Shown one piece after another: positions 25,588-64,000 of a stretch of DNA of 64,000 bases. How positions within the stretch are numbered: position 1 is the stretch's first letter; every line of letters begins with the position of its first letter. The notes under the pieces were generated by a model, which worked only from the letters and a program-made list of their open reading frames with translations, ran no database searches and had not been told where the DNA came from. The position numbers and the translations under genes are program-made. The DNA comes from Candidatus Kaiserbacteria bacterium. GTDB taxonomy: Bacteria > Patescibacteriota > Minisyncoccia > Phycocordibacterales > Phycocordibacteraceae. The stretch is taken from contig OY969413.1 in the NCBI GenBank assembly GCA_963699165.1, positions 63,506 through 127,505 of the forward strand, given 5' to 3'.

Positions 25588-25633
25588 ATCTCTGGAGTAT
25601 AGAGCAAATTTCTGGTAAGGAAATTCCCAGATG

Positions 25634-26983: not shown

Positions 26984-27135
26984 ACAGACACAAGGAATGA
27001 CGCTGACCGCTCTAGGAGTCCAGAGCGTCCGATGCCCTGAGTTGATAAGAAACGGCTTTATTTCAGGTCATTTTTGTGCTAAAATCACAAAATCCACTCA
27101 CTCTGTGGTCACTTTAAATTGGAGAAAAATAGCTA

Positions 27136-33246: not shown

Positions 33247-33504
33247 ATGAAGCAATACCGCATCGCTCCTGAGGTGAAGGAACAAATCATTAATCGAATC
33301 AAGAACGATGGTGTCACTGTCGCCCAAGCGGCCAAAGAGCATGGTATCCACGAGACCACCATCTATGGCTGGCTTGGTGCGAAAGTGCAAGACGGTACCG
33401 CATCTGTTCTTGAGATTGCGAGACTTCGAAAAGAGAATGACGAACTCCTTCGTCTTGTTGGACTCATGACGCTCAAGCTGTCTGAAACCCAAAAAAAGAA
33501 GTGA
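33247..33504 (+). CDS. IS3-family transposase OrfA (IS-A copy 2)
   Basis: Identical to 24693..24950. Confidence 0.85.
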   Translation: MKQYRIAPEVKEQIINRIKNDGVTVAQAAKEHGIHETTIYGWLGAKVQDGTASVLEIARLRKENDELLRLVGLMTLKLSETQKKK

Positions 33505-34313
33505 GCAAAGAATCTCCGATTGGTACGCGCACAACAGCGCGTACTCTTGGTATAGCTCGTTCCACCTTCTGGTATCAAAAGAAGAAGCCTGACAAAGACT
33601 GGGCACTCAAATGCCGTATTGAAGAAGTCCTTCGAGAGTTTCCTTCGTATGGATACCGGAGAGTTGCCCTGTATCTCAAGGAGAACAAAAAGAAGGTTCA
33701 AAGAGTCATGCGACTCTTTGGTATCAAAGCATATCGAAGAAGAGGAAGACGGTGGAGGAAATCAAGGAAACAAGCCGTGGAGTATCCAAATCTCCTGATG
33801 CGGATTGTACCCGCCTATCCGCATCAAGCATGGGTCGCTGATTTCACTCATGTGTATTTCAAAGGGAAAGACATTCGTGTGGCAACCACCATGGACGTAT
33901 ACACTCGAAGTGTCGTTGGGCTCGCCATTGGTACGCGAGGTGGAACCGTACTTGTGACGCAGGCATTGTGCGCGGCACTTCTCAACCATCCTCGTCCCAC
34001 CATCTTTCACAGCGACAACGGAGTGGAATACAATGCCGCATCCTTCCGAGAGATGCTCATCAATTTCGGCATCAGCATCTCTCGCTCAAAAAAGGGCTGT
34101 CCGTGGGAGAACGGGTACCAAGAATCGTTCTATGGAAAATTCAAAACTGATCTGGGCGATCCCAATCGCTTCGATACGCTTGGTGAACTTGTTGCTGAAA
34201 TCTATCAGACAATTCACCGGTACAACACCGTGCGTATACACTCAACACTCAAGATGGCACCGAGAGAGTTTGCGAAATCGCACATCACCCGTACACTATC
34301 TTCACTCGTCTAG
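33501..34313 (+). CDS. IS3-family transposase OrfB (IS-A copy 2)
   Basis: Identical to 23884..24696. Confidence 0.85.
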   Translation: MSKESPIGTRTTARTLGIARSTFWYQKKKPDKDWALKCRIEEVLREFPSYGYRRVALYLKENKKKVQRVMRLFGIKAYRRRGRRWRKSRKQAVEYPNLLMRIVPAYPHQAWVADFTHVYFKGKDIRVATTMDVYTRSVVGLAIGTRGGTVLVTQALCAALLNHPRPTIFHSDNGVEYNAASFREMLINFGISISRSKKGCPWENGYQESFYGKFKTDLGDPNRFDTLGELVAEIYQTIHRYNTVRIHSTLKMAPREFAKSHITRTLSSLV

Positions 34314-36083
34314 GAAGTGGTCTGAAGAATAGGGGTCGGTACACTTTGCCTCCTTCGCTCTTATAAGAAGATTCTGTGCGGGATTGTATCCACCTCTCGT
34401 TGTTTCCTGCTTTACGATAAGTTCTTGGTCGGCATCCTTCTCGTTTAACGGATATGGCGGCGGAGGCGTATATGAACCTTCTGGAATGCGAATCTTTCCC
34501 GCCAAACGATCGCGCATTTCCGAAAACGCAAACCATAGCGCCATCAGTGCATCGCCAGTGTGGCCATCGGGGAACGCTCGCATTTCATTTACGAGTTGCG
34601 CGACGAGTTGTCGCGTTCGCGCGTCACTCTGACTATAAGGAAGGATGATCTTCCTCTGTTCAAAGAGAACCGCTAAACTATTCACGCCGATCGCTGGGTC
34701 ATTCTTTTCTCCGCCGGTCTTGTAGCTGGTGACGAGTGCACCGGAGTCGCCCAAGTCGCGATACATCATTTCCTGAAATCCGTTCGTCTCGACACGAGTT
34801 GCGGTCGGTCTCACGATCGCTTCATTGCGGATGACCATATCGCACGTTTCTTTCGGTGAGAACTTCCCGCGCCGTATGTTGCGAAGCACATAGTCGCCAA
34901 CTTTAAAAGTTCCGTCCGTTGAGCCGCGGAGAACACGGTCGAGAGTGAGAAGAACGGTGTCGTCATTCCAATTCTCGGTAGCGATAGCGAGATCGAGACC
35001 AGCGGTTGTCATTTCCACGTCATACTCGGTATACGGCGCGTCTTGCAAGATCAAGTCCTTGCCCTTAGCAAGTGCTGCTTCAATGTCCTTCTCAAGGAAC
35101 TTCTGATTCGGACGAATTGAAGGATCACACATATACATGCGTGCGAAGGCATATGGATTGGCGATGCGTTTCAGATAAAGATCTCCGTACGAGAAACGCT
35201 CCGGCCAGAGGACATCTATACCTTCCTCCATTTCCGCTTTATGCTCGGCACGATACTCGCTCGCTTTTGCTGTTTTTTCTTCAGGTGAAAGCGATTCATC
35301 GAGATGGATATTTGCCCATTCCTGCCACATATCCTGACGATTCGCTTCGTGCAGTATCGATGGTACGCGTTTTCTCACTTGAAATTGCGGGTCCTTGAGA
35401 AGATTGTTCATCAAGTCGTCCATGTGCCATGTGTTGCCAAGACAGATGAGACGACCGTCCGTCATTAAGACCGGCAGAAGCGTCGTGTATACCCAATCCT
35501 TGATCTTCGCACGCTGCTCCTCGGTCGCGGCGTTTTCCTGCGTCACCACATCATCAAGAATGATGATATCGGCACGCTTGGAAACGATTGACCCGAAGAG
35601 ACCGACGGCATTTACAGTCGGATCTTTTAGATTCAGTCCTTCGCGCTCGACCGTGAAAGAACTTCCGGTCCAATGTTCCTCACGTTTCTTTCCGTGACGC
35701 AGGCGCGGGGCGACACTGCGACGCTTCGGGTCGATCATCTTCGACCAAAGTCGATATTTCGGATTGCGCTCGATGTGCCCAATGATATCTGAAACGAATC
35801 CACGCGCGATTTCGCCAGTGCTCGATACGAGAAGAATGCGAATCTCGCGATTTTTGGCGATCTCCCAGAGAGGGTATGCGATGGAGCTATGGGTTGATTT
35901 ACCAAAACCGCGCGGCATCGCGATGGCGAGTTTTTGATAGGTATAGTTGGAGAGAGCATCGTCAAGTTCGTCCTGAAACGGCGCATTGTTTAGACCAATA
36001 ATTTCGGACACGAAGACGCGAAAATGCTCGGCCGCTATCGCGCAAAAGACGGCCGCTTCTTCAAGTTTTGGAATGTTACCCAT
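34302..36083 (-). CDS. terL: phage terminase large subunit (ATPase + nuclease); last ~14 codons supplied by IS-A copy 2 (C-terminally truncated)
   Basis: It has Walker A AMPRGFGKST and Walker B IIILDDV, followed by a C-terminal RNaseH-like nuclease domain. The start is taken at MGNIPKLEEAAVF; the longest ORF begins at 36122. Confidence 0.75.
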   Translation of the reverse strand: MGNIPKLEEAAVFCAIAAEHFRVFVSEIIGLNNAPFQDELDDALSNYTYQKLAIAMPRGFGKSTHSSIAYPLWEIAKNREIRILLVSSTGEIARGFVSDIIGHIERNPKYRLWSKMIDPKRRSVAPRLRHGKKREEHWTGSSFTVEREGLNLKDPTVNAVGLFGSIVSKRADIIILDDVVTQENAATEEQRAKIKDWVYTTLLPVLMTDGRLICLGNTWHMDDLMNNLLKDPQFQVRKRVPSILHEANRQDMWQEWANIHLDESLSPEEKTAKASEYRAEHKAEMEEGIDVLWPERFSYGDLYLKRIANPYAFARMYMCDPSIRPNQKFLEKDIEAALAKGKDLILQDAPYTEYDVEMTTAGLDLAIATENWNDDTVLLTLDRVLRGSTDGTFKVGDYVLRNIRRGKFSPKETCDMVIRNEAIVRPTATRVETNGFQEMMYRDLGDSGALVTSYKTGGEKNDPAIGVNSLAVLFEQRKIILPYSQSDARTRQLVAQLVNEMRAFPDGHTGDALMALWFAFSEMRDRLAGKIRIPEGSYTPPPPYPLNEKDADQELIVKQETTRGGYNPAQNLLIRAKEAKCTDPYSSDHFLDE

Positions 36084-36495
36084 GGTCGTTTGTTTTAGGG
36101 TGATTAAGATACGGTTCGACAAGCCGCTTGGTTTCGGGTTTCAGTGTTCCGAACACTTCGAAGAAGATATTTTCATCTTCATCACGAGCGATGGCGAAGG
36201 CGGACTCGAAGGCGCGCTGACGATAATCGGGATGCTTATTTTTCAACCAGAATATCGTTGCCGTGAGATTGCCGTTTTTGATGCCGGAGAGTATCTGACT
36301 CTCGGCGGCATCGTTCATGAGCGCCGTGCCTTCGGCGAGCGCGTCATCAACGAACTTCGCGAATTCCGAATCTTCTTTCTTCCACCTGTACAGGCTCGCG
36401 CGACTCATGCCGGTTTTCTGACATGCGACTTCAATGATCGGCGTTTTGCGTAATTGTTCAAGCAACAATTCTTTGGTACGAATAGTCTTTTTCAT
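36076..36495 (-). CDS. phage terminase small subunit-like HTH DNA-binding protein
   Basis: 139 aa with an N-terminal HTH (..KTGMSRASLYRWKKEDSEF..) immediately upstream of terL. Confidence 0.5.
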   Translation of the reverse strand: MKKTIRTKELLLEQLRKTPIIEVACQKTGMSRASLYRWKKEDSEFAKFVDDALAEGTALMNDAAESQILSGIKNGNLTATIFWLKNKHPDYRQRAFESAFAIARDEDENIFFEVFGTLKPETKRLVEPYLNHPKTNDHG

Positions 36496-37274
36496 ATTTG
36501 TTTTGCTTTAAGGTTGGTACAGTGCTCCCAGCGAGAAATCGCTGTGAGGCAATATTCGAGATCAATTTCGACCGCGAAGCATCGACGCTTCGTTTGCTCG
36601 CACGCTAACAGCGTGGTACCGCTGCCAAGAAATCCGTCGTATACCACATCGCCGATTTCGCTTGAGTTGAGAATCAAACGACGAATAAGTCCGATGGGTT
36701 TGGTTGTCGGATGAAATTTGCTTTTGACAGGACGCGGATAGAACAAAACCGACTTATCTTTTGAGTGACGGAATATATGCGTGCCATGCCAGCCGTAAAG
36801 GATCAATTCATGTTGGGGTGCGTAATCGAGGCGACCGATAACCGCTTGCGATTTCACCCACACAAGAAGCTGCGCGACCTTGAATCCAGCGTCTAACATT
36901 CCTTCGCGAAGCGACCACACCATTTTGTCTGCATTGAACACATACGCGGCGTTTTTTCGGGCGAGATAAGGAGCGATTGTTTCAAGCCATGCGCGGTTGA
37001 ACGCCCGATATGATTCATCGGATTGTAGTTCGTCGTTCGCAACAATTTTATCTTTTGAGAGTTTTGAGAATCCGCGTTTAGATTCCACTGCCGAGACGGC
37101 ATACGGTACGTCACAACATACGAGATTTATATGGATATTACCTATAAGCCTCTCCAGCAGTTTTTTGTCACGTGCGTCGCCGTATGCGATGCGGTGATCG
37201 CCAAGTTGCCAGATAGTGCCAGGCTTAATTGAGTTTGCGGGCTTTGATTCCAGTTGCGTTTTCATACCGTTCAA
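36492..37274 (-). CDS. DNA methyltransferase (N6_N4_Mtase family, phage-type)
   Basis: It has a DVPY (DPPY-like) motif and the C-terminal SAM-binding motif VVYDGFLGSGTTLLACEQTKRRCFAVEID. Confidence 0.8.
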   Translation of the reverse strand: MNGMKTQLESKPANSIKPGTIWQLGDHRIAYGDARDKKLLERLIGNIHINLVCCDVPYAVSAVESKRGFSKLSKDKIVANDELQSDESYRAFNRAWLETIAPYLARKNAAYVFNADKMVWSLREGMLDAGFKVAQLLVWVKSQAVIGRLDYAPQHELILYGWHGTHIFRHSKDKSVLFYPRPVKSKFHPTTKPIGLIRRLILNSSEIGDVVYDGFLGSGTTLLACEQTKRRCFAVEIDLEYCLTAISRWEHCTNLKAKQI

Positions 37275-38508
37275 TAATTACGTCCACGAATATCGGCTCT
37301 GCTTCGACCATGTAGCAGATTCGTTTCATCTGATCGGCGGCCATGAGCGTACTACCCGAGCCACCAAAGAGATCCAGCACCGCATCACCCGGCTTCGTAC
37401 AACGCTTGAGTGGCCGTTCGTGCAAGGTCACTGGCTTTTGCGTCGGATGACAATATTCTTGACTGGCGACGCGTTTCGCTAACCAAATATCCGCTTGATC
37501 CATGATGTCGTCGAGCAGTTTATTGCCTGACGGTCCAAGTTCTTTGTTCAGAACTTCTGCGAAGTTCTGCCCGACGGGTGCGATGTACGGCTTATTGCGC
37601 GTCGCATAGACGCAGGGCTCGTAACACTTTCCGAAGGCTACGCCAGGTACAGGGTTGGCGGGTCCCTTAATCCACAAACAAACTCGGCGATTTACGAGAC
37701 CAGCATCGGCAGAAAGTGACTGCACCATACCAATATATTTTTGGTCGCAGAAAAAGAATATGTGACAATCAGGGTCGCATACAACAAGCGCGTTCTCCAT
37801 CGAGCGTTTCAAGAAAGAACGATATTCTTCGTCTGGTTTCGAGTCGTCTACATTTCCGCCATACGAACCTTTGCCGCCAACGCCACGATCGTAATCAAGC
37901 GAGATGTTATAGGGCGGATCACAATAAATCATTCCGATTTTTGCCCCACAGGTAACTTTCTTTACAGTTTCGATATCGAGCGAACTTCCGCAGGCAAGAC
38001 GGTGCGACCCGAGCGCGTATAGATCGCCAGTTTTCGCCTTCGGTTCCTTCACGCGCTTTACCGCCTCGTCAAAATCAAATTCATCATCCGAAGTTTCAAG
38101 CGCGTCCGCAAAGATAATCGACAGATCCGAATCATCGAAGCCCGATGCGAGCATCGTATCGATATCGAAGTATTGGGAAATGAGACCATAATCCCAATCG
38201 CCATGAATACGATTACTTGAAAGCAGGTAACGATCGTACTCCGCCTTTGTGAGCTTTCTCGAAGGAACGCGTACTGGAATTTCTTCATCGATACGACCCA
38301 TGGCGGCTAACGCGGCGATACGCTGATGACCTGCAACTAGAGAGTTATCAAGGTCTATAACAGGAGCTTCAACAATTCCGAATTCTTTCAAGCTCTTTTT
38401 GAGGTCTGTCATCTGTTTCGGACTCATAATCCTTGGATTGTGTGGATTCTGAACGAGGTCGGAAACTTTTCTCGTCTCCGTCGTCCACGTGAGCGGCTGC
38501 TTTTTCAT
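37225..38508 (-). CDS. ParB-like nuclease domain fused to DNA methyltransferase
   Basis: It has an N-terminal ParB/Srx domain (..IVEAPVIDLDNSLVAGHQRIAA..) and a C-terminal MTase (..MIYCDPPYNISLDYD.., ..VLDLFGGSGSTLMAA..). The start is chosen at MKKQPLTW; the longest ORF begins at 38613. Confidence 0.75.
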   Translation of the reverse strand: MKKQPLTWTTETRKVSDLVQNPHNPRIMSPKQMTDLKKSLKEFGIVEAPVIDLDNSLVAGHQRIAALAAMGRIDEEIPVRVPSRKLTKAEYDRYLLSSNRIHGDWDYGLISQYFDIDTMLASGFDDSDLSIIFADALETSDDEFDFDEAVKRVKEPKAKTGDLYALGSHRLACGSSLDIETVKKVTCGAKIGMIYCDPPYNISLDYDRGVGGKGSYGGNVDDSKPDEEYRSFLKRSMENALVVCDPDCHIFFFCDQKYIGMVQSLSADAGLVNRRVCLWIKGPANPVPGVAFGKCYEPCVYATRNKPYIAPVGQNFAEVLNKELGPSGNKLLDDIMDQADIWLAKRVASQEYCHPTQKPVTLHERPLKRCTKPGDAVLDLFGGSGSTLMAADQMKRICYMVEAEPIFVDVIIERYENATGIKARKLN

Positions 38509-38627
38509 ATCGGTATATTTGCTGTTAAAAGGCGCATCGCGCGCCCTACAGCAGATACCCACGACTTTCGGCATTTTTGTGACATATAAAAAGCCGCATG
38601 GAAGCGGCTTCAACGGGGAATCCTATT

Positions 38628-39689
38628 TTAGGACAGTAATGGCTTCAGTTTCGGGAGAGCGCGGCTTTTCGCCTTTCGTTCGGTAGCAGTGAGAATTTCA
38701 CCGCGATAATCTTTTTCTATGGCCAGTCGCTCTTTTGGAGGGAGCTTTGTGATCGCACGAGCGATATCGATTTCTTGGATATTGATGGTATCAGTATGCC
38801 TTGCGAGTACCGCATCTGCTCGGGTTTCATCATTGAGAATTTTATCCAACGATTCTTCCAAAAAATTATCTTTGATTTCGTACTTGCCGCGCCCGAGGTT
38901 GTAATCTTTATGGCGGAGACGAAGCCTCTCCGGAAGTTCCGATAGATACAAAGGTTTTCGACGCGGCTTAGCAAGCAGTTTCTGCGTCTCATCTACTGCA
39001 AACGTGAGATTGCCAAGGGAAGTTGAGGCATAGAGATACTGGTAGGTCGATTTGAAACCGCTCCATGCGCGCGTAAGACGCCGCATTAAATCTGCACGAT
39101 GAGGCCCACACGGATCCTTTTCCTTTACACGAGCGAGGAGAGCTCCAACCTCAACAATTTCTGCCCGCCTTATTTCGAGCTCTTTAATGGTTTTGCACCA
39201 GCCGCGAATCATTTCTTTTGTAACGGATGGATACTTTCCCCGGATTTCATTCCATGCTTCTGGAGTGAATTGGTCTTCCCATGACCAAAGAATCTCCGAT
39301 TGATGATCTGGAGAGAACGGCGGTTCGGATTCTTCAGAGATTTGCAATAATGGATTATGTAAAGTTTTGCTCTCTTCGTCCAAATATCCTTCGTATAAAA
39401 TTTCGGTTAGGGAATGCAGAGATGCTAAAACTTCGGGCGATTCTTCACAATCTTTGGCCGCAAAAAGGAAGTACTGTAGGCAAATCAATTGCAATTGAAG
39501 GTCGTTGAGGAAGAAAAGATCTGGGTGTTGAGCCCGCTTCAGTGCGAATTCTTTCATAACAAGACCCAGATCTGCCCATACATCTTCTGCCGTGCGTGAG
39601 GGCAGACGCAAACGCAGTTGGAAGTTATGAATGGCTTGATCGAACTTCGTTCGTTCGTGATTGATAACGGTGCTGTGCGGAGTGGTCAT
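38628..39689 (-). CDS. hypothetical protein (phage-like cargo)
   Basis: 353-aa ORF with protein-like composition and no recognisable domain. Confidence 0.5.
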   Translation of the reverse strand: MTTPHSTVINHERTKFDQAIHNFQLRLRLPSRTAEDVWADLGLVMKEFALKRAQHPDLFFLNDLQLQLICLQYFLFAAKDCEESPEVLASLHSLTEILYEGYLDEESKTLHNPLLQISEESEPPFSPDHQSEILWSWEDQFTPEAWNEIRGKYPSVTKEMIRGWCKTIKELEIRRAEIVEVGALLARVKEKDPCGPHRADLMRRLTRAWSGFKSTYQYLYASTSLGNLTFAVDETQKLLAKPRRKPLYLSELPERLRLRHKDYNLGRGKYEIKDNFLEESLDKILNDETRADAVLARHTDTINIQEIDIARAITKLPPKERLAIEKDYRGEILTATERKAKSRALPKLKPLLS

Positions 39690-40059
39690 ACTCTAATTTT
39701 ACCCCCAATTCAAGCTTTTTATTACGAGAGTGTCGTGAGACACGGCTTCGTAGATTCAGCTACTTTTTTATAGCGCTTCATTCGTTTCAATTCTTAGTGA
39801 ATACGCCATATTCCGCCAAGAATGCTACATCAGTCGCATTCTTCGATTTTGACCCCCAGACCGAGTGGCTTCGTCATGCTACACTGAAAGGATGTCAAAA
39901 ACCCTTACGGTGCCTCGCCGGGCAAGGTTCTAGACGGACTTGGGGCACCTGAACGCGAGTGAAAGGCATTGGACAGCATGCCGACTGCTCGGCATGTGGC
40001 CGGGCTCGAATGCCGGAGCGATGTTCGGCTGAAAGCCGAACCGCGAGGCGGGGTAGCGA

Positions 40060-40110
40060 ATCTTAGCAGAATGCGAATGCGTGGAGCATTCTGCTTAGCA
40101 ATTCGTGACC
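40060..40110 (+). other. conserved hairpin element, copy 2, abutting attR
   Basis: GAATCTTAGCAGAATGC-GAATGCGTGGA-GCATTCTGCTTAGCAATTCGTGACC forms a 13-bp near-perfect stem and lies immediately 5' of the 19-bp tRNA-Phe repeat. Confidence 0.45.
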
Positions 40111-40129
40111 GAGCCCGGGTCCAAGCACT
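40111..40129 (+). repeat. attR: 19-bp direct repeat of the tRNA-Phe 3' end
   Basis: CGAGCCCGGGTCCAAGCAC is identical to tRNA-Phe positions ~23357-23375. The upstream T-arm sequence is not conserved, so only the tRNA 3' fragment is present. Confidence 0.7.
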
Positions 40130-50340: not shown

Positions 50341-51042
50341 GGCCACGCATAATTTTCTGCTGAAAATTTGCGCGGCTCCTAAAGGACTGCGGTTTGTATG
50401 CCAATCGCTTCGCTCTTGGACAAACCGGAAGCCCTCCTCGGGCCTCATTCAGCAGAATGACCTACTGGGGTCGCCCTGCGGCTTTCGAGTCCCTTACTGC
50501 GCTACAAAACAATAATCGCCACACGCTTCGCGTATGACTCGTTTGTTTTGTGGCGGGACTCGGTCACGAATAATTCGTTCGCCGCCGCTCACGAATTTTC
50601 GCGACCCCGTCTCGGCCACGCACTCGCTTCGCTCGCGCGGCTTCGCGGCCTCCGACTTTCGAGTCCCTTACCGCGCTACAAAATGATAGTCGCCGGTCAC
50701 TTTCGTGACCGGCTCCTTCATTTTGTGCGCGGGCTCGGCCACGCATAATTTTCTGCTGAAAATTTGCGCGGCCCCGCCTCCGGCCGTCGCCGTCCGGCTT
50801 TCGAGTCCCTTACCGCGCTACAAAACAATAATCGCCACACGCTTCGCGTATGGCTCGTTTGTTTTGTGGCGGGACTCGGTCACGAATAATTCGTTCGCCG
50901 CCACTCACGAATTTTCGCGACCCCGTCTCGGCCACGCGCTCGCTTCGCTCGCGCGGCTTCGCGGCCTCCGACTCTCGAGTCCCTTACTGCGCTACAAAAC
51001 AATAATCGCCACACGCTTCGCGTATGGCTCGTTTGTTTTGTG
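50341..51042 (+). repeat. complex tandem repeat array containing four copies of a tRNA-Val 3'-end fragment (TTCGAGTCCCTTACCGCGC)
   Basis: There are two full 174-bp units (~50483-50656 and ~50800-50973) plus a 67-bp partial unit, interleaved with a variant unit (~50657-50799). Each unit starts with CTTTCGAGTCCCTTACYGCGCTACAAAA. The motif GGCCACGCATAATTTTCTGCTGAAAATTTGCGCGGC recurs at ~50341 and ~50737. The ORFs here are repeat artefacts. Confidence 0.7.
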
Positions 51043-51106: not shown

Positions 51107-51125
51107 CGTACGGCTTGAGGCCTAA
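51107..51125 (+). repeat. 19/20-bp direct repeat (left copy) TTGAGG-CCTAACGGTCACG; right copy at ~58281-58300 next to tRNA-Val
   Basis: The two copies are 19/20 identical and 7.2 kb apart. They bracket the DGR, the IS481-like element, two IS-A copies, the IS-B fragments and a serine-recombinase gene fragment. Confidence 0.5.
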
Positions 51126-51537
51126 CGGTCACGATCAGAACTGGACACTTTAGACACTACATAGCGTGTTCCACCAGTGTCCTGTTTTCGGGATTCCAGC
51201 AAGCCTTTCAAGGGTATTTGAGAGATTCGGAGCCTTAACCCACCATCCCGGAGGGAGTCCAACGGTACCGCACCAAAAAACGAACAAACCGAACACGAAA
51301 GCGCATATTTTGAGTGTTCGTATTCTGTTCGGTTCTGGAGGCTCATAGGCACCCAATTCGTGAGACAGGTGTCTCATTTGCCCTCCACAGCATGGCTTAT
51401 TTGCTCAATATGAGACAAATGAGACACAAAAGAGGGGTATTTGGGGTGTCTCATTTGTCGAAGTTAAAATGCCAATAAATGCCAATTTTTGAGAATGTGT
51501 AAGAAATAAAAACAAGGATACATATGTTGCATATGTG

Positions 51538-56786: not shown

Positions 56787-57599
56787 CTAGACGAGTGAAG
56801 ATAGTGTACGGGTGATGTGCGATTTCGCAAACTCTCTCGGTGCCATCTTGAGTGTTGAGTGTATACGCACGGTGTTGTACCGGTGAATTGTCTGATAGAT
56901 TTCAGCAACAAGTTCACCAAGCGTATCGAAGCGATTGGGATCGCCCAGATCAGTTTTGAATTTTCCATAGAACGATTCTTGGTACCCGTTCTCCCACGGA
57001 CAGCCCTTTTTTGAGCGAGAGATGCTGATGCCGAAATTGATGAGCATCTCTCGGAAGGATGCGGCATTGTATTCCACTCCGTTGTCGCTGTGAAAGATGG
57101 TGGGACGAGGATGGTTGAGAAGTGCCGCGCACAATGCCTGCGTCACAAGTACGGTTCCACCTCGCGTACCAATGGCGAGCCCAACGACACTTCGAGTGTA
57201 TACGTCCATGGTGGTTGCCACACGAATGTCTTTCCCTTTGAAATACACATGAGTGAAATCAGCGACCCATGCTTGATGCGGATAGGCGGGTACAATCCGC
57301 ATCAGGAGATTTGGATACTCCACGGCTTGTTTCCTTGATTTCCTCCACCGTCTTCCTCTTCTTCGATATGCTTTGATACCAAAGAGTCGCATGACTCTTT
57401 GAACCTTCTTTTTGTTCTCCTTGAGATACAGGGCAACTCTCCGGTATCCATACGAAGGAAACTCTCGAAGGACTTCTTCAATACGGCATTTGAGTGCCCA
57501 GTCTTTGTCAGGCTTCTTCTTTTGATACCAGAAGGTGGAACGAGCTATACCAAGAGTACGCGCTGTTGTGCGCGTACCAATCGGAGATTCTTTGCTCAC
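56787..57599 (-). CDS. IS3-family transposase OrfB (IS-A copy 4)
   Basis: Identical to the other copies. Confidence 0.85.
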   Translation of the reverse strand: MSKESPIGTRTTARTLGIARSTFWYQKKKPDKDWALKCRIEEVLREFPSYGYRRVALYLKENKKKVQRVMRLFGIKAYRRRGRRWRKSRKQAVEYPNLLMRIVPAYPHQAWVADFTHVYFKGKDIRVATTMDVYTRSVVGLAIGTRGGTVLVTQALCAALLNHPRPTIFHSDNGVEYNAASFREMLINFGISISRSKKGCPWENGYQESFYGKFKTDLGDPNRFDTLGELVAEIYQTIHRYNTVRIHSTLKMAPREFAKSHITRTLSSLV

Positions 57600-57853
57600 T
57601 TCTTTTTTTGGGTTTCAGACAGCTTGAGCGTCATGAGTCCAACAAGACGAAGGAGTTCGTCATTCTCTTTTCGAAGTCTCGCAATCTCAAGAACAGATGC
57701 GGTACCGTCTTGCACTTTCGCACCAAGCCAGCCATAGATGGTGGTCTCGTGGATACCATGCTCTTTGGCCGCTTGGGCGACAGTGACACCATCGTTCTTG
57801 ATTCGATTAATGATTTGTTCCTTCACCTCAGGAGCGATGCGGTATTGCTTCAT
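57596..57853 (-). CDS. IS3-family transposase OrfA (IS-A copy 4)
   Basis: Identical to the other copies. Confidence 0.85.
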   Translation of the reverse strand: MKQYRIAPEVKEQIINRIKNDGVTVAQAAKEHGIHETTIYGWLGAKVQDGTASVLEIARLRKENDELLRLVGLMTLKLSETQKKK

Positions 57854-57945: not shown

Positions 57946-58196
57946 TACTGTTAGAGAGCATCAGCATCGACGAGATTGGGGCTCGGCATCTCATCGAAAG
58001 AGAGGTATCCCGGTACAACAAGCTCCGGGCGGCCATGCAGGACAAAAGTGAGAAGGTGAAGGCAGACGAAATGGATATACGGAAGTACGCAAAGTATCTT
58101 CTTGAGAACGGGACACCATCGGAACAGCGGGAACTACTCGGGCATCTCAAGGGAAGGATCATCCTGAAAGACCGGAAGGTGGCTATCGAAAATTAG
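57946..58196 (+). pseudogene. 3'-terminal fragment (~80 codons) of a large serine recombinase gene, truncated by the IS-B/IS-A cluster
   Basis: The in-frame translation ..[76 protein letters not shown]-stop is homologous to the C-terminus of the recombinase at 25634..26983 (..[56 protein letters not shown]..). Confidence 0.65.
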
Positions 58197-58210
58197 AGCG
58201 CCCAAAGCAA

Positions 58211-58245
58211 AACCTCGCGATGAAAATCGCGAGGTTTTGCGTCAA
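58211..58245. terminator. bidirectional hairpin terminator
   Basis: AAAACCTCGCGATTTTCATCGCGAGGTTTTG. Confidence 0.6.
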
Positions 58246-58321
58246 ACACCCCGAAAGGTACCGAACCACCTATTCTCATTTTGAGGGCCTAACGGTCACG
58301 TTTTTAGGCCGCTGACTGCTG

Positions 58322-58394
58322 TGCGCGGTAAGGGACTCGAACCCCTGACCCTCTCAACGTCAATGAGATGCTCTACCAACTGAGCTAACCGCGC
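58322..58394 (-). tRNA. tRNA-Val (anticodon GAC)
   Basis: The minus strand reads GCGCGGTTAGCTCAGTTGGTAGAGCATCTCATTGACGTTGAGAGGGTCAGGGGTTCGAGTCCCTTACCGCGCA with anticodon loop TTGACGT. No CCA is encoded. Confidence 0.85.
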
Positions 58395-58453
58395 GTCAGT
58401 GGACTATACCACGACATCTTTTCGGACGAAATACGGCGTTTCAATATTGTGTT

Positions 58454-58981
58454 TTGGTGGTAAAATCCGACCAATCTATGAATTCTTCAACTGAAATTCC
58501 CGAGTTTGGCACGAAGCGAGAAAATGAAGAACGGCGCGACGGCGGCTGTGCGATTGTATTTGACCCCGAAACAAAGCGGTACGCGGTCGGCAGGCACACG
58601 GCCGACGGCAAGCTGCGGCTTTTTTCGGGCGGCGTCGGAGACGACGAAGATATTCAAGCCGGCATTCTTCGCGAGGTTGTCGAGGAAAGCGGTTTGCATG
58701 ATTTTTCGCATGTCGAAGTCATAGGCGAAGCGTTTACGCACTATTACAACATTTTGAAAAAGGTGAACCGGGTGGGGAAGGCGACGTGTCTGCTCGTCAT
58801 TTTGAAAAGCAGGAATCTTGTCGAAACAAAACTCGAGGAGCACGAGAAATTTACGCTTGCGTGGGTGACGGCCGAAGAATTATTTTCAAATTGGAACGCG
58901 CACAACGAAACAAACAATTACGACCACTGGATTTATTTTATGAACATCGCCGTTCGGCGTCTGAAGGAATTGGGATATTAA
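58454..58981 (+). CDS. NUDIX hydrolase
   Basis: Nudix-box-like motif GGVGDDEDIQAGILREVVEESGL. Confidence 0.6.
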   Translation: MVVKSDQSMNSSTEIPEFGTKRENEERRDGGCAIVFDPETKRYAVGRHTADGKLRLFSGGVGDDEDIQAGILREVVEESGLHDFSHVEVIGEAFTHYYNILKKVNRVGKATCLLVILKSRNLVETKLEEHEKFTLAWVTAEELFSNWNAHNETNNYDHWIYFMNIAVRRLKELGY

Positions 58982-59036
58982 AGGGGCGGGGAAACCCGAA
59001 GGTTCCGCCCGCCCGGCATTGTCTGCGCGATGGATA

Positions 59037-59378
59037 TTACTCCGTCTTTCCGCAGTTGCGGAGCCGCTCCGCTGCCGCACCTTCGAAAATTATCTTGAAA
59101 TTACCCGTTGAGTAGAATTCCACCGCAGCGGATTCCGAGTCGAAGAATCCATAAGCGACGAGTTTGCCTCCCGCCCTCGTCCACACGACATCTGTGTCAA
59201 ATTCTCCTTCAAACATAGCCCGATTACACGAGTCAAGTAGCTCCTTTGCTTTTTCAAAAGCCGTTGGCTCATTCGGCAGGGAGCCGGTCGGTTCTTTCAC
59301 GTCAGCATCTCCTTTGTCGCAAGGGGTCTGCACGCGTAATACCAAATGCGGCAAGCGGTGTAAAGCTTCGGGCGACAC
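59037..59378 (-). CDS. hypothetical protein
   Basis: 113-aa ORF with no recognisable motif. Confidence 0.3.
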   Translation of the reverse strand: MSPEALHRLPHLVLRVQTPCDKGDADVKEPTGSLPNEPTAFEKAKELLDSCNRAMFEGEFDTDVVWTRAGGKLVAYGFFDSESAAVEFYSTGNFKIIFEGAAAERLRNCGKTE

Positions 59379-59901
59379 CCCCTATTTGGAAAGCGGGGGT
59401 GTCGCCATTAGGCAGGCGATGGAATTGAGGGCATGAATAGCAAGCAGGTGTGCCCGGCTGACGACGGCGGCCTTGACAGCAGTCCAAGATGGTGTATCTT
59501 GCAAAAAGATCGATGTGGGGATAAGCCAAGTTTTAACCCCACTCGTTGGTACCATTTAAATAGCCCCGCTCTTCACAAAAAGGAAATTTTCGATGCCAGG
59601 CATGATGGTCTTCTCCTCGCTCGGTGAAGCACTGAGAGCCGGATTCCAGGTGTACGACCGGACTCCGGACGGATACCTCGTCCGACGGCTCACATCCAGA
59701 GGATGGGCGTTGGCAGTCGTCGTCGTCCGCCAGGAGGTATACGCCTAGACGTGTACTCCTACCGCTCCCCAGCAGGCCCCCATTTTTATGTGGGGGTCTG
59801 TCTATGTAAAACGACCATTAAATCATTTAATACTCACTGTTCGGCATCTGTTTAATACGTGTGTGGCCGATTGGCGCGCTATTGTTACAATTACTGTAAT
59901 G

Positions 59902-61125
59902 GAATTGGATACGGCTAATCTCGCAAAGGCGCGCGCATACATCGATTCGTACTGGCAGCGTCTCGTTCGAAAAAATGAAACCGATTCGGGCACGCTCATC
60001 GGACTGCCGAATCCGTATCTGGTGCCGTCATACCCGGAAGACAGCGAGTTTAATTACGACGAACTCTACTATTGGGACAGCTACTTCATGGTGCAGGGCA
60101 TGCTCGATGAGCCACACAAGGACTTGGTGCTCGGAATTCTCGACGACCTCATTTACCTGTTCCAGCGGTTCAACATCATTCCGAACGGTTCGCGCTTGTA
60201 TTACACCAGCCGCACCCAGCCGCCATTCCTGACGAGTTTCATTTTCGACGTATACGACGCGTACAATCTCGACGCCGAATGGCTGCGAGAAAAGATTTTT
60301 GTCGCAATGCAAGAATACGAGACGGTGTGGATGGGAACAAAGAAGCCGAATGCGCGGCAGGTCTACCAAGGACTCAGCCGCTACTACGACTTCAATTATC
60401 TGAACGACCTTGCCGAGGCCGAAAGCGGGTGGGACATGACGCCGCGATTCGAGCGGAAGGCGCTCGATTATCTTCCCATCGACCTCAACACGCTTTTGTA
60501 TAAATACGAAAAGGATTTTGCGCGCGCCGCTCGCATACTGGGCGACACTGACGAGGCAGCCGCATGGGATGAGCGCGCGCAGCGCCGGAAGGAAACGATA
60601 GACAAGCTCATGTGGAGCGAGCGCGACGGTTTGTATTACGATTACAATTATGCGACCAAAAAACGGGGAACCGTCGCGTCGCTCGCGAGCTTTTATCCCT
60701 TGTGGGCGGGCATGGTTGATGAAAAAAGAGCCGCGCGTCTGGTCCGTTCTCTCGCACGTTTCGAAAAAGCGGGCGGGCTGGTGACTGCCGTTTTGCAACC
60801 GCTCACGCACCGTTTTCGACGCAGCATTCCTTTGCAGTGGGCATATCCGAACGGCTGGGCGCCGCTGCAATTTTTGATAATCAAAGGCCTTGAGCGGTAT
60901 GGCTTTCATGCCGAATCGAAAAGGATTGCGCTCAAATGGCTGCAGACCAATCTGAATTGGTTCACCGCGCACGGCGAATTTTTGGAAAAATATAACGTGG
61001 TACATCCCGCCGAGGAACCCGCAAAGGGTTTGTACCCGCCGCAAACGGGCTTCGGGTGGAGCAACGCGGTCTTCGAGCGGCTGTGCAGGGATTATGTGGA
61101 TGGGGGCGGACGGAGCGGGGAATGA
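59902..61125 (+). CDS. treA: trehalase (glycoside hydrolase family 37)
   Basis: It carries GH37 signatures: ..DELYYWDSYFMVQGML.., ..SRTQPPFLT.. and a C-terminal ..PQTGFGWSNAV.. The start is chosen at MELDTANLAKA; the longest ORF begins at 59788. Confidence 0.75.
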   Translation, partial: ELDTANLAKARAYIDSYWQRLVRKNETDSGTLIGLPNPYLVPSYPEDSEFNYDELYYWDSYFMVQGMLDEPHKDLVLGILDDLIYLFQRFNIIPNGSRLYYTSRTQPPFLTSFIFDVYDAYNLDAEWLREKIFVAMQEYETVWMGTKKPNARQVYQGLSRYYDFNYLNDLAEAESGWDMTPRFERKALDYLPIDLNTLLYKYEKDFARAARILGDTDEAAAWDERAQRRKETIDKLMWSERDGLYYDYNYATKKRGTVASLASFYPLWAGMVDEKRAARLVRSLARFEKAGGLVTAVLQPLTHRFRRSIPLQWAYPNGWAPLQFLIIKGLERYGFHAESKRIALKWLQTNLNWFTAHGEFLEKYNVVHPAEEPAKGLYPPQTGFGWSNAVFERLCRDYVDGGGRSGE

Positions 61126-61182
61126 CATGCAAACACCGCCCGCGCTAAAGCGCGGGCGGTGTTTTTTGATGGATCTGATGCG

Positions 61183-61476
61183 TTAGCTTATGGAAATGGA
61201 ATGTGAAATCATTGAGTTATGTATCTCCGTGAATTCGCTAAAAGTGATGATGGTGATTTTGTCCAAGTCAAAACCGTAGTGCCGGAAAACTTCCCGCGCA
61301 TCTCCGTCAAATCTTTTTTCCCAATCAAAACCGACTCGCAAGCATAGTTTTTTCAGTGACTCCACCGACGGTCCTTCGATTTCTACGTAGGCGGGAATTT
61401 TCGGCCAGCTGTCGATGTCAATCGTGACATCATCCGGTACTATTTCGTAACAGGGAATCGGGCAAGCGCTCGTCAA
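61183..61476 (-). pseudogene. C-terminal fragment of a CYTH-like (CyaB/thiamine-triphosphatase-type) protein, possibly truncated at an att-repeat zone
   Basis: The region ..YVEIEGPSVESLKKLCLRVGFDWEKRFDGDAREVFRHYGFDL resembles CYTH C-terminal strands. Its N-terminus starts inside repeated tRNA-Glu 3'-end fragments. Confidence 0.3.
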
Positions 61477-61482
61477 AAAATC

Positions 61483-61606
61483 GACCCCACGGGGAATCGG
61501 TCAAGCGCTCGTTCGTCGCCGTCGCTCCTCACTCCGCCTGACCACGCTCGCGCGACCCGACCTGCTGGCCGGGTGCCCGCGCTCGCCTTCGATTCCCCGT
61601 GGGGTC
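61483..61606. repeat. 17-bp inverted pair of the tRNA-Glu 3' end (GACCCCACGGGGAATCG) flanking a 90-bp GC-rich spacer, plus a 20-bp direct repeat GGAATCGGKCAAGCGCTCGT
   Basis: The direct copy lies at ~61483-61499 and the inverted copy at ~61590-61606, both identical to the tRNA-Glu gene 3' end at ~61658-61674. GGAATCGGGCAAGCGCTCGT occurs at ~61454 and GGAATCGGTCAAGCGCTCGT at ~61492. Confidence 0.6.
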
Positions 61607-61656
61607 TACAAAAATATAATCGCCCGATGCTCATCGCATCGTTCTCATTATTTTTG

Positions 61657-61728
61657 TGACCCCACGGGGAATCGAACCCCGATTTACGCCGTGAAAGGGC
61701 GCTGTCCTAACCGTTAGACGATGGGGCC
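61657..61728 (-). tRNA. tRNA-Glu (anticodon TTC)
   Basis: The minus strand reads GGCCCCATCGTCTAACGGTTAGGACAGCGCCCTTTCACGGCGTAAATCGGGGTTCGATTCCCCGTGGGGTCA. No CCA is encoded. Confidence 0.8.
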
Positions 61729-61778
61729 GTCTACAGGCGCACAAACTAGGAGTTGTGTGCACATGTATTGAAACCTTA

Positions 61779-63476
61779 TCATTTCCGCCACGAAATGCTA
61801 GGATAGCCAGCACGGGCTACGGCGAAAACTGACCTTTCGCTCGTCCAGACATCGCATGCGATGCAAATAAGGAGAGGTGGCAGAGTGGTCGAATGCACTG
61901 GTTTCGAAAACCAGCAGGGGTGTAAGCTCCTCGTGGGTTCAAATCCCACCCTCTCCGCAATAGGTAGGACAGTACTAGATTTATCAAAATTATTTTGGGC
62001 TTCACGCAGTGAAGCCCATTGGGGTTGAGCCACGCCGCGCGCTTCGCGCGTATGTAAGGAAAGGTTGGAGCCGAAGATTTTTTGGAGGGAGAGTTTTTTG
62101 GAGCGGAGGTCGCTGCTTTTTCGTATTTCGTCCAGCATTGAAGCGTCCTTTATGAAATCACGCAGAGGTTGGAGCCAAAGCGTAGCGTCATGCTCCAGTC
62201 GGACGATCTGTTCCTCGGCCGACTTGCGCTCAGACATGAGCGCACGCCTCCGCTCAAGGTAGGTATCGCGGTCTATGTCCTGCTCGGAATAGAGATCAAC
62301 GAAGCGGCTCATCTTGCCGTCCAGTTGAGCAATCTTCGCTCGGAGTTCTTGCACGGCAGTCATAGCAACGGACTCGGTCTTCTGCTCGTCTTCGTTAGCC
62401 ATGCGGTATAGCTCTTGCGTCCAATCCGTAGGCATAACATAGAGCGAAAGTAGATCGGAGAGTTGAGCACTCAATACCTCCTCGCGGACATAGGACTGCG
62501 AACAGATACCGCGTTTCTTGGTACAACGGTAGTAGACGTAGCGGTGGACGTTGCCGTTCTTCTGGTGCTTGGTTATCACTTCTCCCGTTATCATCCCGCC
62601 GCACTCGCCGCAACGCATAATGCCGCACAGAGGCTGCGGCTCATTCTTGGGCTTGTGTCGCTGTCTGCCGCGTAGCTCCAAAACGTCCTGCACTTTGTCG
62701 AAAGTGGCTTTTGAAACTAGGGGCGTATGCACACCTTTGTACACCTCTCCGGCGTACTCGAAATGACCGTAGTAGAAGACGTTGGTGAGCATCTTCTTTA
62801 TGCTGTCCTTTTTCAAAGGCTTGTCGCCGCTACTACCGGACTTCTTGATCTTCTTACTTCTGATACCACGCTCATACAGAAAAGTGGCAATGTCCTCGAA
62901 GCGTGATTTGTTCTCAGCGTACAGCTCAAAGGCCGTTCGGATGGCCGGAGCCTTGCGACGATCAACTTCGACGCGCTTCGTTCTGGGATTGTTGATATAG
63001 CCCAACGGAGCAAGCCCCGGATACTCGCCGCGTCTCGCTTTCTCCCGTTGTCCCCGTTTCGTATTCGCACTCAAGTCGCGGATGTAGTGGTTCGCCATTC
63101 CAAGCTCGACAGACATCATCAGCACGTTATCGGCGGGAAGAAAACTGCGATCGTGAGTTTGTATGTGTTGAATTACGGACTGCTGCAAAAGCCAACTGAT
63201 CTGGCCGCCGTCCACCGGATTACGGGCAAGGCGATCTATCTTCCAACACACGATGCCCTGCGCTTCGCCCGCGATGATACGTCGGATTATATCGTTAAAG
63301 ACGGGACGACCCGGCTTCTTCGCGGATTGCTTCTCCACGAACTCGGCCGCAATCTCCAACCCCTCGCGCTTAGCGAGGGAGCGCAACTCAGAGAGCTGCG
63401 CGTCTATCGAGAGGACTTGCTTGTCCTCGACATCGGTACTCTTGCGGGCGTAGAGGAAGTAGTGGGGCATAGGCAT
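61779..63476 (-). CDS. large serine recombinase (integrase of a tRNA-Ser-associated element); ORF reads through the opposite strand of tRNA-Ser
   Basis: It begins MPMPHYFLYARKSTDVEDKQVLSIDAQ.. (resolvase domain), followed by a recombinase domain, a zinc ribbon (CGIMRCGECGG..YYRCTKKRGIC) and a coiled-coil. The last ~58 codons (..ERVGFEPTRSLHP..) overlap tRNA-Ser antisense, so the true C-terminus may lie near 61960. Confidence 0.8.
   Translation of the reverse strand: MPMPHYFLYARKSTDVEDKQVLSIDAQLSELRSLAKREGLEIAAEFVEKQSAKKPGRPVFNDIIRRIIAGEAQGIVCWKIDRLARNPVDGGQISWLLQQSVIQHIQTHDRSFLPADNVLMMSVELGMANHYIRDLSANTKRGQREKARRGEYPGLAPLGYINNPRTKRVEVDRRKAPAIRTAFELYAENKSRFEDIATFLYERGIRSKKIKKSGSSGDKPLKKDSIKKMLTNVFYYGHFEYAGEVYKGVHTPLVSKATFDKVQDVLELRGRQRHKPKNEPQPLCGIMRCGECGGMITGEVITKHQKNGNVHRYVYYRCTKKRGICSQSYVREEVLSAQLSDLLSLYVMPTDWTQELYRMANEDEQKTESVAMTAVQELRAKIAQLDGKMSRFVDLYSEQDIDRDTYLERRRALMSERKSAEEQIVRLEHDATLWLQPLRDFIKDASMLDEIRKSSDLRSKKLSLQKIFGSNLSLHTREARGVAQPQWASLREAQNNFDKSSTVLPIAERVGFEPTRSLHPCWFSKPVHSTTLPPLLICIACDVWTSERSVFAVARAGYPSISWRK
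61871..61957 (+). tRNA. tRNA-Ser (anticodon CGA), class II with a long variable arm
   Basis: GGAGAGGTGGCAGAGTGGTCGAATGCACTGGTTTCGAAAACCAGCAGGGGTGTAAGCTCCTCGTGGGTTCAAATCCCACCCTCTCCG. No CCA is encoded. Confidence 0.85.
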
Positions 63477-63530
63477 TACATTATAGTGTAATACTACCTA
63501 TATAATATAACAAGCTATATACTCTGGATA

Positions 63531-63737
63531 ATGAAAAGTGAGTCCGAGAAACTTGGCAGAAATCTGAAGAGGATTCGGAAAGCGAAGGGTATAACGCAGG
63601 GCGACATAGTCCGTGCACTAGGAGTTGGGAGAGGATATATCAGCAACATTGAGAACGGTAAAATGAATCCTACACTCTCGACAATCACAAGGTTGGCGAA
63701 GGCTCTCGGTGTATCATCTAATGAGTTGCTGAAATAA
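63531..63737 (+). CDS. XRE-family helix-turn-helix transcriptional regulator
   Basis: 68 aa with HTH_3 (..ITQGDIVRALGVGRGYISNIENGKMNPTLSTITRLAKALGVS..). It is divergent from the recombinase, as in phage cI/Cro-like regulators. Confidence 0.8.
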   Translation: MKSESEKLGRNLKRIRKAKGITQGDIVRALGVGRGYISNIENGKMNPTLSTITRLAKALGVSSNELLK

Positions 63738-63740
63738 TTT

Positions 63741-64000
63741 ATGAAATTTGAACTAGAAGAATTCCACAGAAATACATCAGAGGAAGAAATGCTTGCCGAT
63801 GTTAGACGTGTTGCAGAAAAAATAAACAAGAATTCTGTAACAATGGACGAATATAAAGAATTTGGGAAATATCACCCATCAACACTAACTCGTAAGATGG
63901 GTAGTTGGTTTAATATTCTCGAAAAAGCTGGAATGAAAATAAACCGTAGCCCGATGAATATACCTGAGGAGGAGCTTTTTAAGAACTTAGAAGAAGTGTG
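63741..64000 (+). CDS. hypothetical protein (3' end outside the window), in an AT-richer foreign-looking segment
   Basis: The ORF from ATG 63741 (MKFELEEFHRNTSEEEMLADVRRVAEKINKNS..) runs to the window end. Base composition is visibly lower in GC than the flanking chromosome. Confidence 0.4.
   Translation, partial: MKFELEEFHRNTSEEEMLADVRRVAEKINKNSVTMDEYKEFGKYHPSTLTRKMGSWFNILEKAGMKINRSPMNIPEEELFKNLEEV

Follow-up and report, generated by a model that had tools for sequence, protein, structure and literature searches.

Analysis of a 64,000-nt stretch of the Candidatus Kaiserbacteria contig OY969413.1 (the window in what follows) revealed an integrase gene, rec565, that very probably spans the attachment site of its own mobile element. 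The open reading frame (ORF) of rec565 (61779-63476, minus strand, 565 aa) is present in an integrated, attL-type form and runs into the 3′ end of an intact tRNA-Ser(cga) gene (61871-61958, plus strand). We propose that rec565 belongs, as integrase, to a mobile element that has inserted at the very 3′ end of this tRNA, which would supply the B′ arm, and that this element continues to the right beyond the window. In the clade of rec565, the crossover of attP would lie inside the integrase ORF, about 13-16 codons before the native stop; the last ~50 ORF codons would form the P arm (P1), and the P′ arm (Q) would encode the native tail, xLYxxARTYFxxN followed by a stop. Recombination between attP (P1/Q, the slash marking the junction) and attB (tRNA trailer/tRNA 3′ end) would exchange the arms, so that integration would leave the tRNA whole and the integrase ORF would lose its native tail and stop. 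The integrated ORF would then read antisense through the tRNA to a chance stop, which is reached 59 codons on in the window. Within Q, the codons for A-R-T (GCT CGA ACC) resemble the antisense of a tRNA T-loop and are 4 bp more distant from the crossover than the T-loop in the tRNA arm. Sequence comparison establishes the geometry of the locus, its recurrence across the family, two junction states, a common core and an empty site; we infer that rec565 catalyses the integration reaction, and the tail swap, convergent tRNA transcription and hairpins within the ORF would damp integrase expression after integration.

An earlier note on this DNA, made from the sequence alone, had proposed that the recombinase ORF has no stop before tRNA-Ser and continues for ~58 codons through its antisense. 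This is borne out, with an extension of 59 codons beyond the conserved end. Residue 506 (Ile) ends at 61959, residues 507-535 are the antisense of tRNA-Ser(cga), including ..AERVGFEPT.., and residues 536-565 with the stop codon (61779-61870, minus strand; TGA at 61779-61781) cross host DNA upstream of the tRNA and are predicted to be disordered. Since the chance of a single open stretch of 59 codons is (61/64)^59, about 0.06, and thus not rare on its own, the weight of the read-through must come from homologues.

By its domain content and matches in the PDB, rec565 is classed as a large serine recombinase (LSR). It contains a Resolvase domain (PF00239, residues 7-151, 63024-63458, E = 1.2e-19), a Recombinase domain (PF07508, residues 175-268, 62673-62954), a zinc ribbon (Zn_ribbon_recom, PF13408, residues 282-341, 62454-62633) and coiled-coil helices (residues 350-453, 62118-62429), followed by the P1 arm, which comprises the last ~52 conserved codons (residues ~455-506, 61959-62114, minus strand). 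Y9, R11, K12, S13 and T14 are nearly invariant among 34 homologues, and Cys284, 289, 292, 318 and 325 of the zinc ribbon are invariant in the same set. By sequence, its closest PDB entries are the SPbeta and A118 integrases, at low identity (E ~1e-13). In an AF2 model built with these 34 homologues, residues 350-399 and 403-430 form long helices, and the P1-encoded part folds as a helix, a β-hairpin and a final helix. A small serine DNA invertase of the Hin/Gin/Pin type (~190 aa with a C-terminal helix-turn-helix (HTH), active on short inverted sites with an enhancer) was rejected as an identification on account of the 506 conserved residues and the recombinase and zinc-ribbon domains; the 'DNA invertase Pin-like' names that homologues bear in their source records are generic annotations.

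A protein search with rec565 returned 6536 relatives at E <= 1e-20, the best of them from Patescibacteria metagenome-assembled genomes (MAGs). We compared 80 genome and 80 metagenome loci by tblastn and ARAGORN (related loci are given L numbers below), and used 109 distinct Patescibacteria loci with a complete ORF 3′ end for tail counts. A tRNA in antisense abuts the ORF in 82 of these 109, starting exactly at the end of conservation, and the targets span 13 isotypes (Leu, Arg, Thr, Val, Tyr, Gln, Gly, Glu, Ser, Ile, Asn, Phe and Ala). The stop codon lies inside the tRNA in 52 of the 82 loci and beyond it in 30; the tRNA-derived tails measure 3-77 codons (median ~21), and at one locus the ORF is fused to a downstream gene with 892 extra codons. 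Among the best 120 of the 6536 relatives, the conserved body ends in ..NLVSxLV at the tRNA 3′ terminus and is followed in 82 by tRNA-antisense peptides of the G[FILV]EP type and in 16 by the alternative conserved tail xLYxxARTYFxxN with its stop; the peptides translated from antisense T-arms include GFEPT, GIEPR, GLEPP and RLELS. The frame relative to the T-loop (G-[FILV]-E-P) is fixed over the 13 isotypes. A conserved stop upstream of the tRNA, which the earlier note had named as the observation that would speak against its reading, was sought among homologues of 50-92% identity and none was found; the stops are variable and lie within or beyond the targeted tRNA, so that the part of the note's proposal in which host tRNA sequence terminates the integrase gene holds. 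At least three of the loci scored as having no tRNA carry a group I intron directly after the junction, and are therefore intron-split tRNAs, which have been reported for Patescibacteria (PMC13011429). The recombinase of L086 is 88% identical to rec565 and has the same tRNA-Ser(cga) target and the same tRNA-Ser(cga)/tRNA-Glu(ttc) neighbourhood.

The crossover position was located by comparing sites within and between elements. A repeat search in L023, L029 and L057 revealed two adjoining pairs of inverted repeats, which give three related sites. Site 3 is P1/tRNA, where P1 comprises the last 110-195 nt of the ORF; site 2 is P1/Q, an inverted copy inside the element in which Q starts with the ARTYF tail and its stop; and site 1, further out and in direct orientation, is trailer/Q, where the trailer contains a terminator-like hairpin of the kind to be expected behind a tRNA gene. 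Only 3-6 nt are common to the three sites (TGGTGA, GTGA and GTG in L023, L029 and L057, respectively), which would fit a 2-bp crossover. Sites 1 and 3 match the attR and attL expected from attP (P1/Q) and attB (trailer/tRNA). Direct repeats of 13-15 nt of the tRNA end had at first been taken as the bounds of the L023 and L029 elements, a candidate superseded by the three-site comparison; these repeats represent older relics of tRNA fragments and lie ~175 nt beyond the true junction.

The same arrangement defines the junction in the window. In the Ser subclade (window, L086, L002, L003 and L165) the ORF reads ..CCTATT-GCG up to the junction and then enters a tRNA-Ser isoacceptor (cga, gct, gga or tga), and the internal copies read ..ATTGCG/CAGCTCTAC..AGAAC[TC]..TTTAGC. 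A TGCG core is common to site 3 of the window, L086, L002 and L003, to site 2 of L002, L003 and L085, and to an empty site in L012, where tRNA-Ser(cga) is unoccupied (..GTAT-GCG/GAGAGGG) and unrelated host DNA starts after ..CCGCA. These sites, among them an empty site of the kind that the earlier note had suggested for finding the att core, therefore place the window junction at 61956-61959 (CGCA on the plus strand, TGCG on the gene strand, tRNA positions ~72-75), with the tRNA untouched. The recombinase of L012 itself reads into the same tRNA-Glu(ttc) that stands unoccupied in the window (61656-61728, minus strand), the target type of a sister subclade.

Both junction states were found with nearly the same module. 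The modules of L095 and L093, which come from different metagenomes, agree in all of 2771 nt, after which L095 continues into Q and cargo and L093 into tRNA-Val; L116 and L114 are 99.8% identical over 2054 nt before diverging into Q and tRNA-Arg, respectively. Hence the crossover is within the ORF, and the C-terminus is exchanged upon integration. These pairs provide direct evidence for a live recombination point at the ORF 3′ end and for a protein with two alternative C-termini.

The two right-hand half-sites share a motif. Across ~75 Q arms, the codons for R-T-Y-F are [CA]GA AC[CT] TAT TT[TC], which include GAACC, the antisense of the tRNA T-loop. In three subclades, the distance of the near-invariant motif [CA]GAAC[CT] from the core is 19 nt in Q and 15 nt in the tRNA arm. 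We read GAACC as one putative recognition motif, set 4 bp further out in the attP-type half-site, a reading that also accounts for the ability of the clade to change tRNA targets. An offset between attP and attB motifs is also a feature of LI/A118-type integrases (5 bp in LI integrase), and the 4-bp shift matches it. Arg codons other than xGA are rare in Q arms, and the conservation of the ARTYF peptide is therefore at least partly a DNA constraint; synonymous variation (ACC/ACT/ACA, TAT/TAC, TTT/TTC) together with the kept frame and stop of Q also fits translation. A further T-loop-antisense-like TCGAACC is found ~130 nt from the crossover in the region of TTCGGCTCGAACCTC, which encodes the invariant peptide K-I-F-G-S-N-L (codons ~466-472, window ~62061-62081); this patch is the single patch of divergence in the inverted copies of P1 described below (65% identity).

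Several observations weigh against this account. The far end of the window element and any attR lie beyond 64000, and the independent assembly L167 extends the sequence by just 1.28 kb, to an insertion sequence (IS) copy; the data hold no sign of continued mobility of the window copy. No terminal overlaps that would indicate circular contigs were found among the contigs examined, and all P1/Q contigs end inside a repeat. The left half-sites, P1 and the tRNA trailer, share no obvious motif. The recombinases of L085 and L088, 86-92% identical to rec565, read into non-tRNA sequence. If transcripts end at a hairpin in P1 (hairpin B, below), the tRNA-derived tail may rarely be translated. A simple integrase model needs no inverted P1/Q copy, yet most elements hold one. 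With regard to L085 and L088, all that is kept at their junctions (4293-4404 and 3343-3373, respectively) is GAACC/GAACT 15 nt from a GCG core, and they look like tRNA-like pseudo-sites or decayed fragments.

The inverted copy invites another reading. Of the 64 genome loci that could be evaluated, 55 carry an inverted orphan copy of P1, with 74-100% identity and at 0.1-9 kb upstream of the gene; many metagenome loci have one too, and the repeats recur in long-read and complete assemblies (L027, L061). The cargo lies between two further long inverted repeats; in L023 the two pairs are 6077-6317/9467-9707 and 9702-9826/11395-11519, with similar arrangements in L029, L057, L061, L003 and L001. 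For the window element, the inverted copy is expected ~2 kb past position 64000. The orphan copies lack a start codon and are frameshifted distally, and the junction-proximal 100 nt of the arms are 95-98% identical in 54 loci with diverged arms. L023 and L029 are 78% identical to each other, but their arms are 98-100% identical within each element, which indicates concerted evolution. Many short-read contigs end about one k-mer into such repeats, which accounts for the frequent MAG contig breaks. A conserved GC-rich motif, GCGCACGGGyGGsGTGGGGCAAG, is present just inside the orphan P1 copy of many elements (L002 ~300-360, L078 ~2960-2990, L165 11620-11655; also L012, L019 and L047).

On this basis, the recombinase module might be a cassette able to invert or to insert either way round, with inverted copies of its own 3′ end on its two sides, a reading that we regard as tentative and would not favour. 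The architecture fits either a circle with two inverted attP sites that inserts either way or flipping of the recombinase module; flipping or use of the orphan site would alternate a tRNA-fused, tRNA-convergent state with a native-tail state co-directional with the tRNA promoter. Besides the abundance of orphan copies and the concerted evolution of their arms, alternative arrangements speak for it: L078 is flipped, tRNA-Asn(+)/rc(P1)-gene-recombinase(+), where rc denotes the reverse complement, and L001, L068 and L095 have the order recombinase-P1/Q-cargo-rc(Q). However, no pair of contigs shows one module in both orientations against the same flanks, L023 and L029 are collinear, and to our knowledge large serine integrases do not recombine attP with attL. 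Some orphan copies are, in addition, degenerate, as in L165, the closest complete relative of the window element, in which the core is deleted, or carry foreign tRNAs, as in L134, with a diverged foreign tRNA pair on the orphan side. Such a cassette would add to the explanation of rec565 as an integrase that spans its attP, and does not contradict it. A more specific version, slightly less probable again, is that the elements are two-segment, two-site cassettes in which an integrase module and a cargo module are each bounded by long inverted repeats, with an attP-type site that overlaps the final codons of the integrase gene, and the integrase is switched between the two states, the native-tail form being downstream of the tRNA promoter. 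If true, this would amount to a self-limiting on/off switch made from a serine integrase, a tRNA gene and in-ORF hairpins, thrown by repeat recombination or by the choice of the inserting attP copy. A palindromic attP (P1/rc(P1)) with an IS-like recombinase module was also considered and rejected, since no homologue tail reads into rc(P1); inverted ends are not excisable by conservative recombination, which rules out an IS-like module with terminal inverted repeats.

Nearly all P1 arms fold into one or two hairpins, embedded in the final 100 nt of the recombinase coding sequence. In the window, hairpin B (GGGCTTCAC-TGC-GTGAAGCCC, 61996-62018, minus strand) has a 10-bp helix and encodes WASLREAQ, and hairpin A (CGCGCGAAGCGCGCG, 62036-62050, minus strand) encodes REARG and recurs in about half of the subclades with compensatory variants. 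The hairpin B peptide, W/Y-x-S/A-L-x-x-A-x, is in effect palindrome-encoded. These folds open the possibility that the read-through is never expressed: transcription would end at the conserved hairpin ~40 nt before the junction and yield, whatever the state of the junction, a non-stop mRNA subject to ribosome rescue, which would keep protein levels low. The structure of hairpin B is conserved throughout the clade, with compensatory changes. Across 64 loci, 83% of hairpin B cells are paired compared with 64% in shuffles (none of 500 shuffles reaches the observed value), and the covariation score is 0.476, as against 0.172 for shuffles and 0.06-0.15 for slid controls. Compared with synonymously recoded versions, native arms are more stable by 6 kcal/mol (mean z -1.46, 73 arms), and a consensus scan flagged hairpin B as terminator-like on the gene strand, where it is followed by AAAATAATTTT in the window. 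The T-run is weak, however, lies 4-6 A residues away and is absent in several subclades (L010, L011, L018). In about 70 sequences, moreover, the frame of the native Q tail stays open and its stop is found at a conserved distance, with few non-synonymous changes, which implies translation past hairpin B at some stage. We therefore consider complete silence of the read-through unlikely; hairpin B may halt integrase transcription before the antisense tRNA, or may be a DNA-level feature of a long P arm.

If the tail is made, it could be a selected functional part of the integrated-state enzyme, for instance in excision or stability, but this is quite improbable. The frame into the tRNA is conserved, with all tails beginning x-x-x-G-[FILV]-E-P, and Mx8 IntX reportedly differs in function from IntP, a case with an altered integrase C-terminus to which we return below. 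The fixed frame follows, however, from the fixed crossover position. Tail length is scattered over the whole range given above and clusters only where tRNA features give stops, a downstream gene is occasionally fused, and the sequence tracks the target tRNA, not the recombinase. In the AF2 model the predicted local distance difference test (pLDDT) score is ~90 up to residue ~500 and <50 for residues 502-565. The tail is thus best regarded as a non-functional, disordered by-product, as the model and the homologues suggest, and the idea that host tRNA completes the integrase gene finds no support as regards function. Loss of the native tail of 13-16 residues may or may not matter. The last alternative, that the gene truly ends near residue 506 and the open frame is a GC-rich accident or a sequencing error, has almost no probability left, since, although a tail of this length could arise by chance at the frequency given above and is predicted to be disordered, comparison with homologues refutes it: no stop occurs at or before the junction in the window or in ~100 homologous loci, the G-[FILV]-E-P frame is fixed across 13 isotypes, and L167 is 100% identical to the window over 5859 nt.

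The earlier note had described three loci of one layout in the window, with recombinases facing tRNA-Phe, a tRNA-Val fragment and tRNA-Ser. All three are indeed LSRs that face tRNA 3′ ends, but they belong to two families, and the read-through is, on sequence grounds, limited to the rec565 clade. tblastn of both recombinases against the window, in which ARAGORN identified six tRNAs, showed that rec449 (25634-26983, minus strand) is 35% identical to rec565 and has its own stop; it points toward tRNA-Phe at a distance of 2.26 kb, with a 185-aa ORF and an IS between. At tRNA-Val, the tRNA (58321-58394, minus strand) is intact and it is the adjoining recombinase that is a fragment: a 3′ remnant of the rec449 family (57948-58196, plus strand, 82 codons and a TAG at 58194-58196), truncated by an insertion of the IS3 type (56787-57853). 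This TAG and a hairpin (58207-58240) precede tRNA-Val by ~125 nt. Among the 120 best homologues of each family, those of rec449 share a conserved C-terminal sequence and vary little in length (sd 8.8 aa versus 41.4 aa in the rec565 family), and a tRNA-antisense motif occurs in 1 of 120 tails as compared with 82 of 120.

rec449 is located in a low-GC defence island of 16.7 kb, at whose two ends the same 19 nt of the tRNA-Phe 3′ end are repeated (23357-23375 and 40110-40128). The cargo of this island (23376-40128) comprises rec449, HsdM, an N6_N4 methylase, a SIR2-like and HerA-like pair and IS copies. Two IS3-type copies of the 270-aa-ORF type are found in the island and two more near 55.3-57.9 kb, and three copies of the 260-aa-ORF type are in the island, an IS load that is unusually high for a ~1-Mb Patescibacteria genome. 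Four sense copies (18-19 nt) of the tRNA-Val 3′ end at 50484-50992, opposite in orientation to the tRNA-Val gene, are each followed by CTACAAAAyrATArTCGCC and a hairpin in alternating 174/142-nt units, and resemble relics of att junctions. The two copies of a 15-nt direct repeat (GGCCTAACGGTCACG-like), at 51119-51133 and 58286-58300, may bound a decayed rec449-family element at tRNA-Val; if so, its att core would lie ~20 nt downstream of tRNA-Val and not inside it. Downstream of tRNA-Glu(ttc) are a 17-nt direct copy (61483-61499) and a 29-nt inverted copy (61588-61616) of the tRNA 3′ end, the latter followed by the TACAAAAATATAATCGCC motif and a hairpin, the same motif as at the tRNA-Val 3′ copies; a similar tRNA-Glu fragment occurs ~175 nt beyond the element in both L023 and L029.

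As the earlier note had stated, the element at tRNA-Ser is only partly in the window. An Xre-type HTH gene (63531-63737, plus strand), divergent from rec565, is part of the recombinase module; an identical HTH protein adjoins a related recombinase in L165 and L166. It is followed by the start of an HNH-repeat/HNH endonuclease cargo gene (63741-64000, plus strand; compare the L167 gene 5600-6271) that continues past the window end. Complete elements of the clade span 4.6-10.7 kb, and their cargo is defence, restriction-modification (R-M), diversity-generating retroelement or TraG-like; the second junction, attR, is present in L023, L029, L057, L061, L083 and L165. The cargo of L084 (1133-4175) is a diversity-generating retroelement with RVT_1, a bAvd-like gene and a 178-nt repeat pair (91% identity). 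Neighbouring genes are unrelated between the elements compared, with no conserved partner gene, such as a directionality factor, beside the recombinase. No relatives of rec565 were found in IMG/VR viral contigs, and a phage origin of the clade was rejected on this ground. The clade is probably under-annotated: an exact-sequence look-up of the rec565 protein in the protein collection gave no record, and in L167 the recombinase (4049-5350, equivalent to window 62190-63491) is uncalled, with three short ORFs annotated on the opposite, plus strand instead.

What emerges is a large and coherent clade of serine integrases, with hundreds of loci, aimed at the last nucleotides of at least 13 tRNA types. 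Near relatives within it switch between isoacceptors, which makes the clade a natural series for the study of serine integrase re-targeting and a possible source of new orthogonal integrases. It also identifies a main vehicle of defence and R-M islands in Patescibacteria, and its repeats and swapped 3′ ends account for many MAG contig breaks, missed genes and odd gene lengths at these loci.

The use of tRNA genes by serine integrases has been stated as not known (PMC4383910) and as not previously reported, with 14 unproven candidates out of 297 (PMC7192596). Searches of the literature on Patescibacteria, Candidate Phyla Radiation (CPR) and Saccharibacteria for serine recombinases, tRNA and integration found no description of the rec565 clade, which is apparently undescribed. 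Phage LSRs (A118/LI, SPbeta SprA, Bxb1 and phiC31) share the Resolvase, Recombinase and zinc-ribbon domains with a coiled coil, the short crossover core and a motif shifted outward in attP relative to attB; unlike the rec565 clade, they target protein-coding genes or intergenic sites and have attP outside the int ORF.

Other likenesses concern the architecture. Tycheposons of Prochlorococcus are small cargo elements beside tRNA genes, 27 of 937 with a large serine recombinase (bioRxiv 10.1101/2020.12.28.424599). They resemble the rec565 elements as cargo-carrying elements at tRNA genes in streamlined genomes, but mostly use tyrosine recombinases, and the passages of that preprint consulted describe no integrase ORF that spans attP and no internal inverted attP copy. 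The Flp/FRT inverted repeats of the yeast 2-micron plasmid and the inverted repeats of chloroplasts are further comparison systems. In the 2-micron plasmid, as here, two long inverted repeats with recombinase sites split the element into two unique segments and evolve in concert; Flp, however, is of the tyrosine class, its repeats do not overlap the recombinase ORF and it does not integrate at chromosomal tRNAs, and for the rec565 clade inversion is only proposed.

The closest parallels are found among tyrosine integrases, as the earlier note had recognised when it called the device known there and rarely noted for serine recombinases; in the literature searched, Mx8 and SSV represent it (PMC4383910, PMC7253208) and this serine clade does not appear. 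The rec565 clade resembles Mx8 in having the recombination site inside the integrase ORF, towards its 3′ end, and in the change of C-terminus on integration. The target of Mx8 is the 3′ end of a tRNA gene. For its tyrosine integrase, an attP in the 3′ region of the ORF and an altered C-terminus after integration are described (IntP/IntX; Tojo et al. 1996, cited in PMC4383910). Mx8 uses a tyrosine recombinase, a 7-bp-type overlap and a duplicated tRNA segment, whereas the rec565 clade uses an LSR and a 3-6-nt core at the very end of the tRNA and duplicates no tRNA segment. SSV-type integrases likewise have tRNA genes as targets. These 'suicidal' integrases of archaeal viruses and plasmids have a recombination site within the integrase ORF and variable target specificity (PMC7253208). 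As in the rec565 clade, the integrase gene is altered by integration and targets vary; the SSV enzymes are, however, tyrosine recombinases split into two inactive pseudogenes, whereas integration in the rec565 clade replaces no more than the last 13-16 codons and spares every folded domain. rec565, with serine recombinase domains only and no tyrosine fold, thus works like the Mx8 and SSV integrases but is not a member of their family, and the device of an integrase ORF spanning attP has evolved independently in both recombinase superfamilies. Known from tyrosine integrases is the ORF that spans attP; apparently new are a tRNA-targeting LSR clade, a serine integrase gene that straddles its own attP, and the architecture with an extra inverted site.

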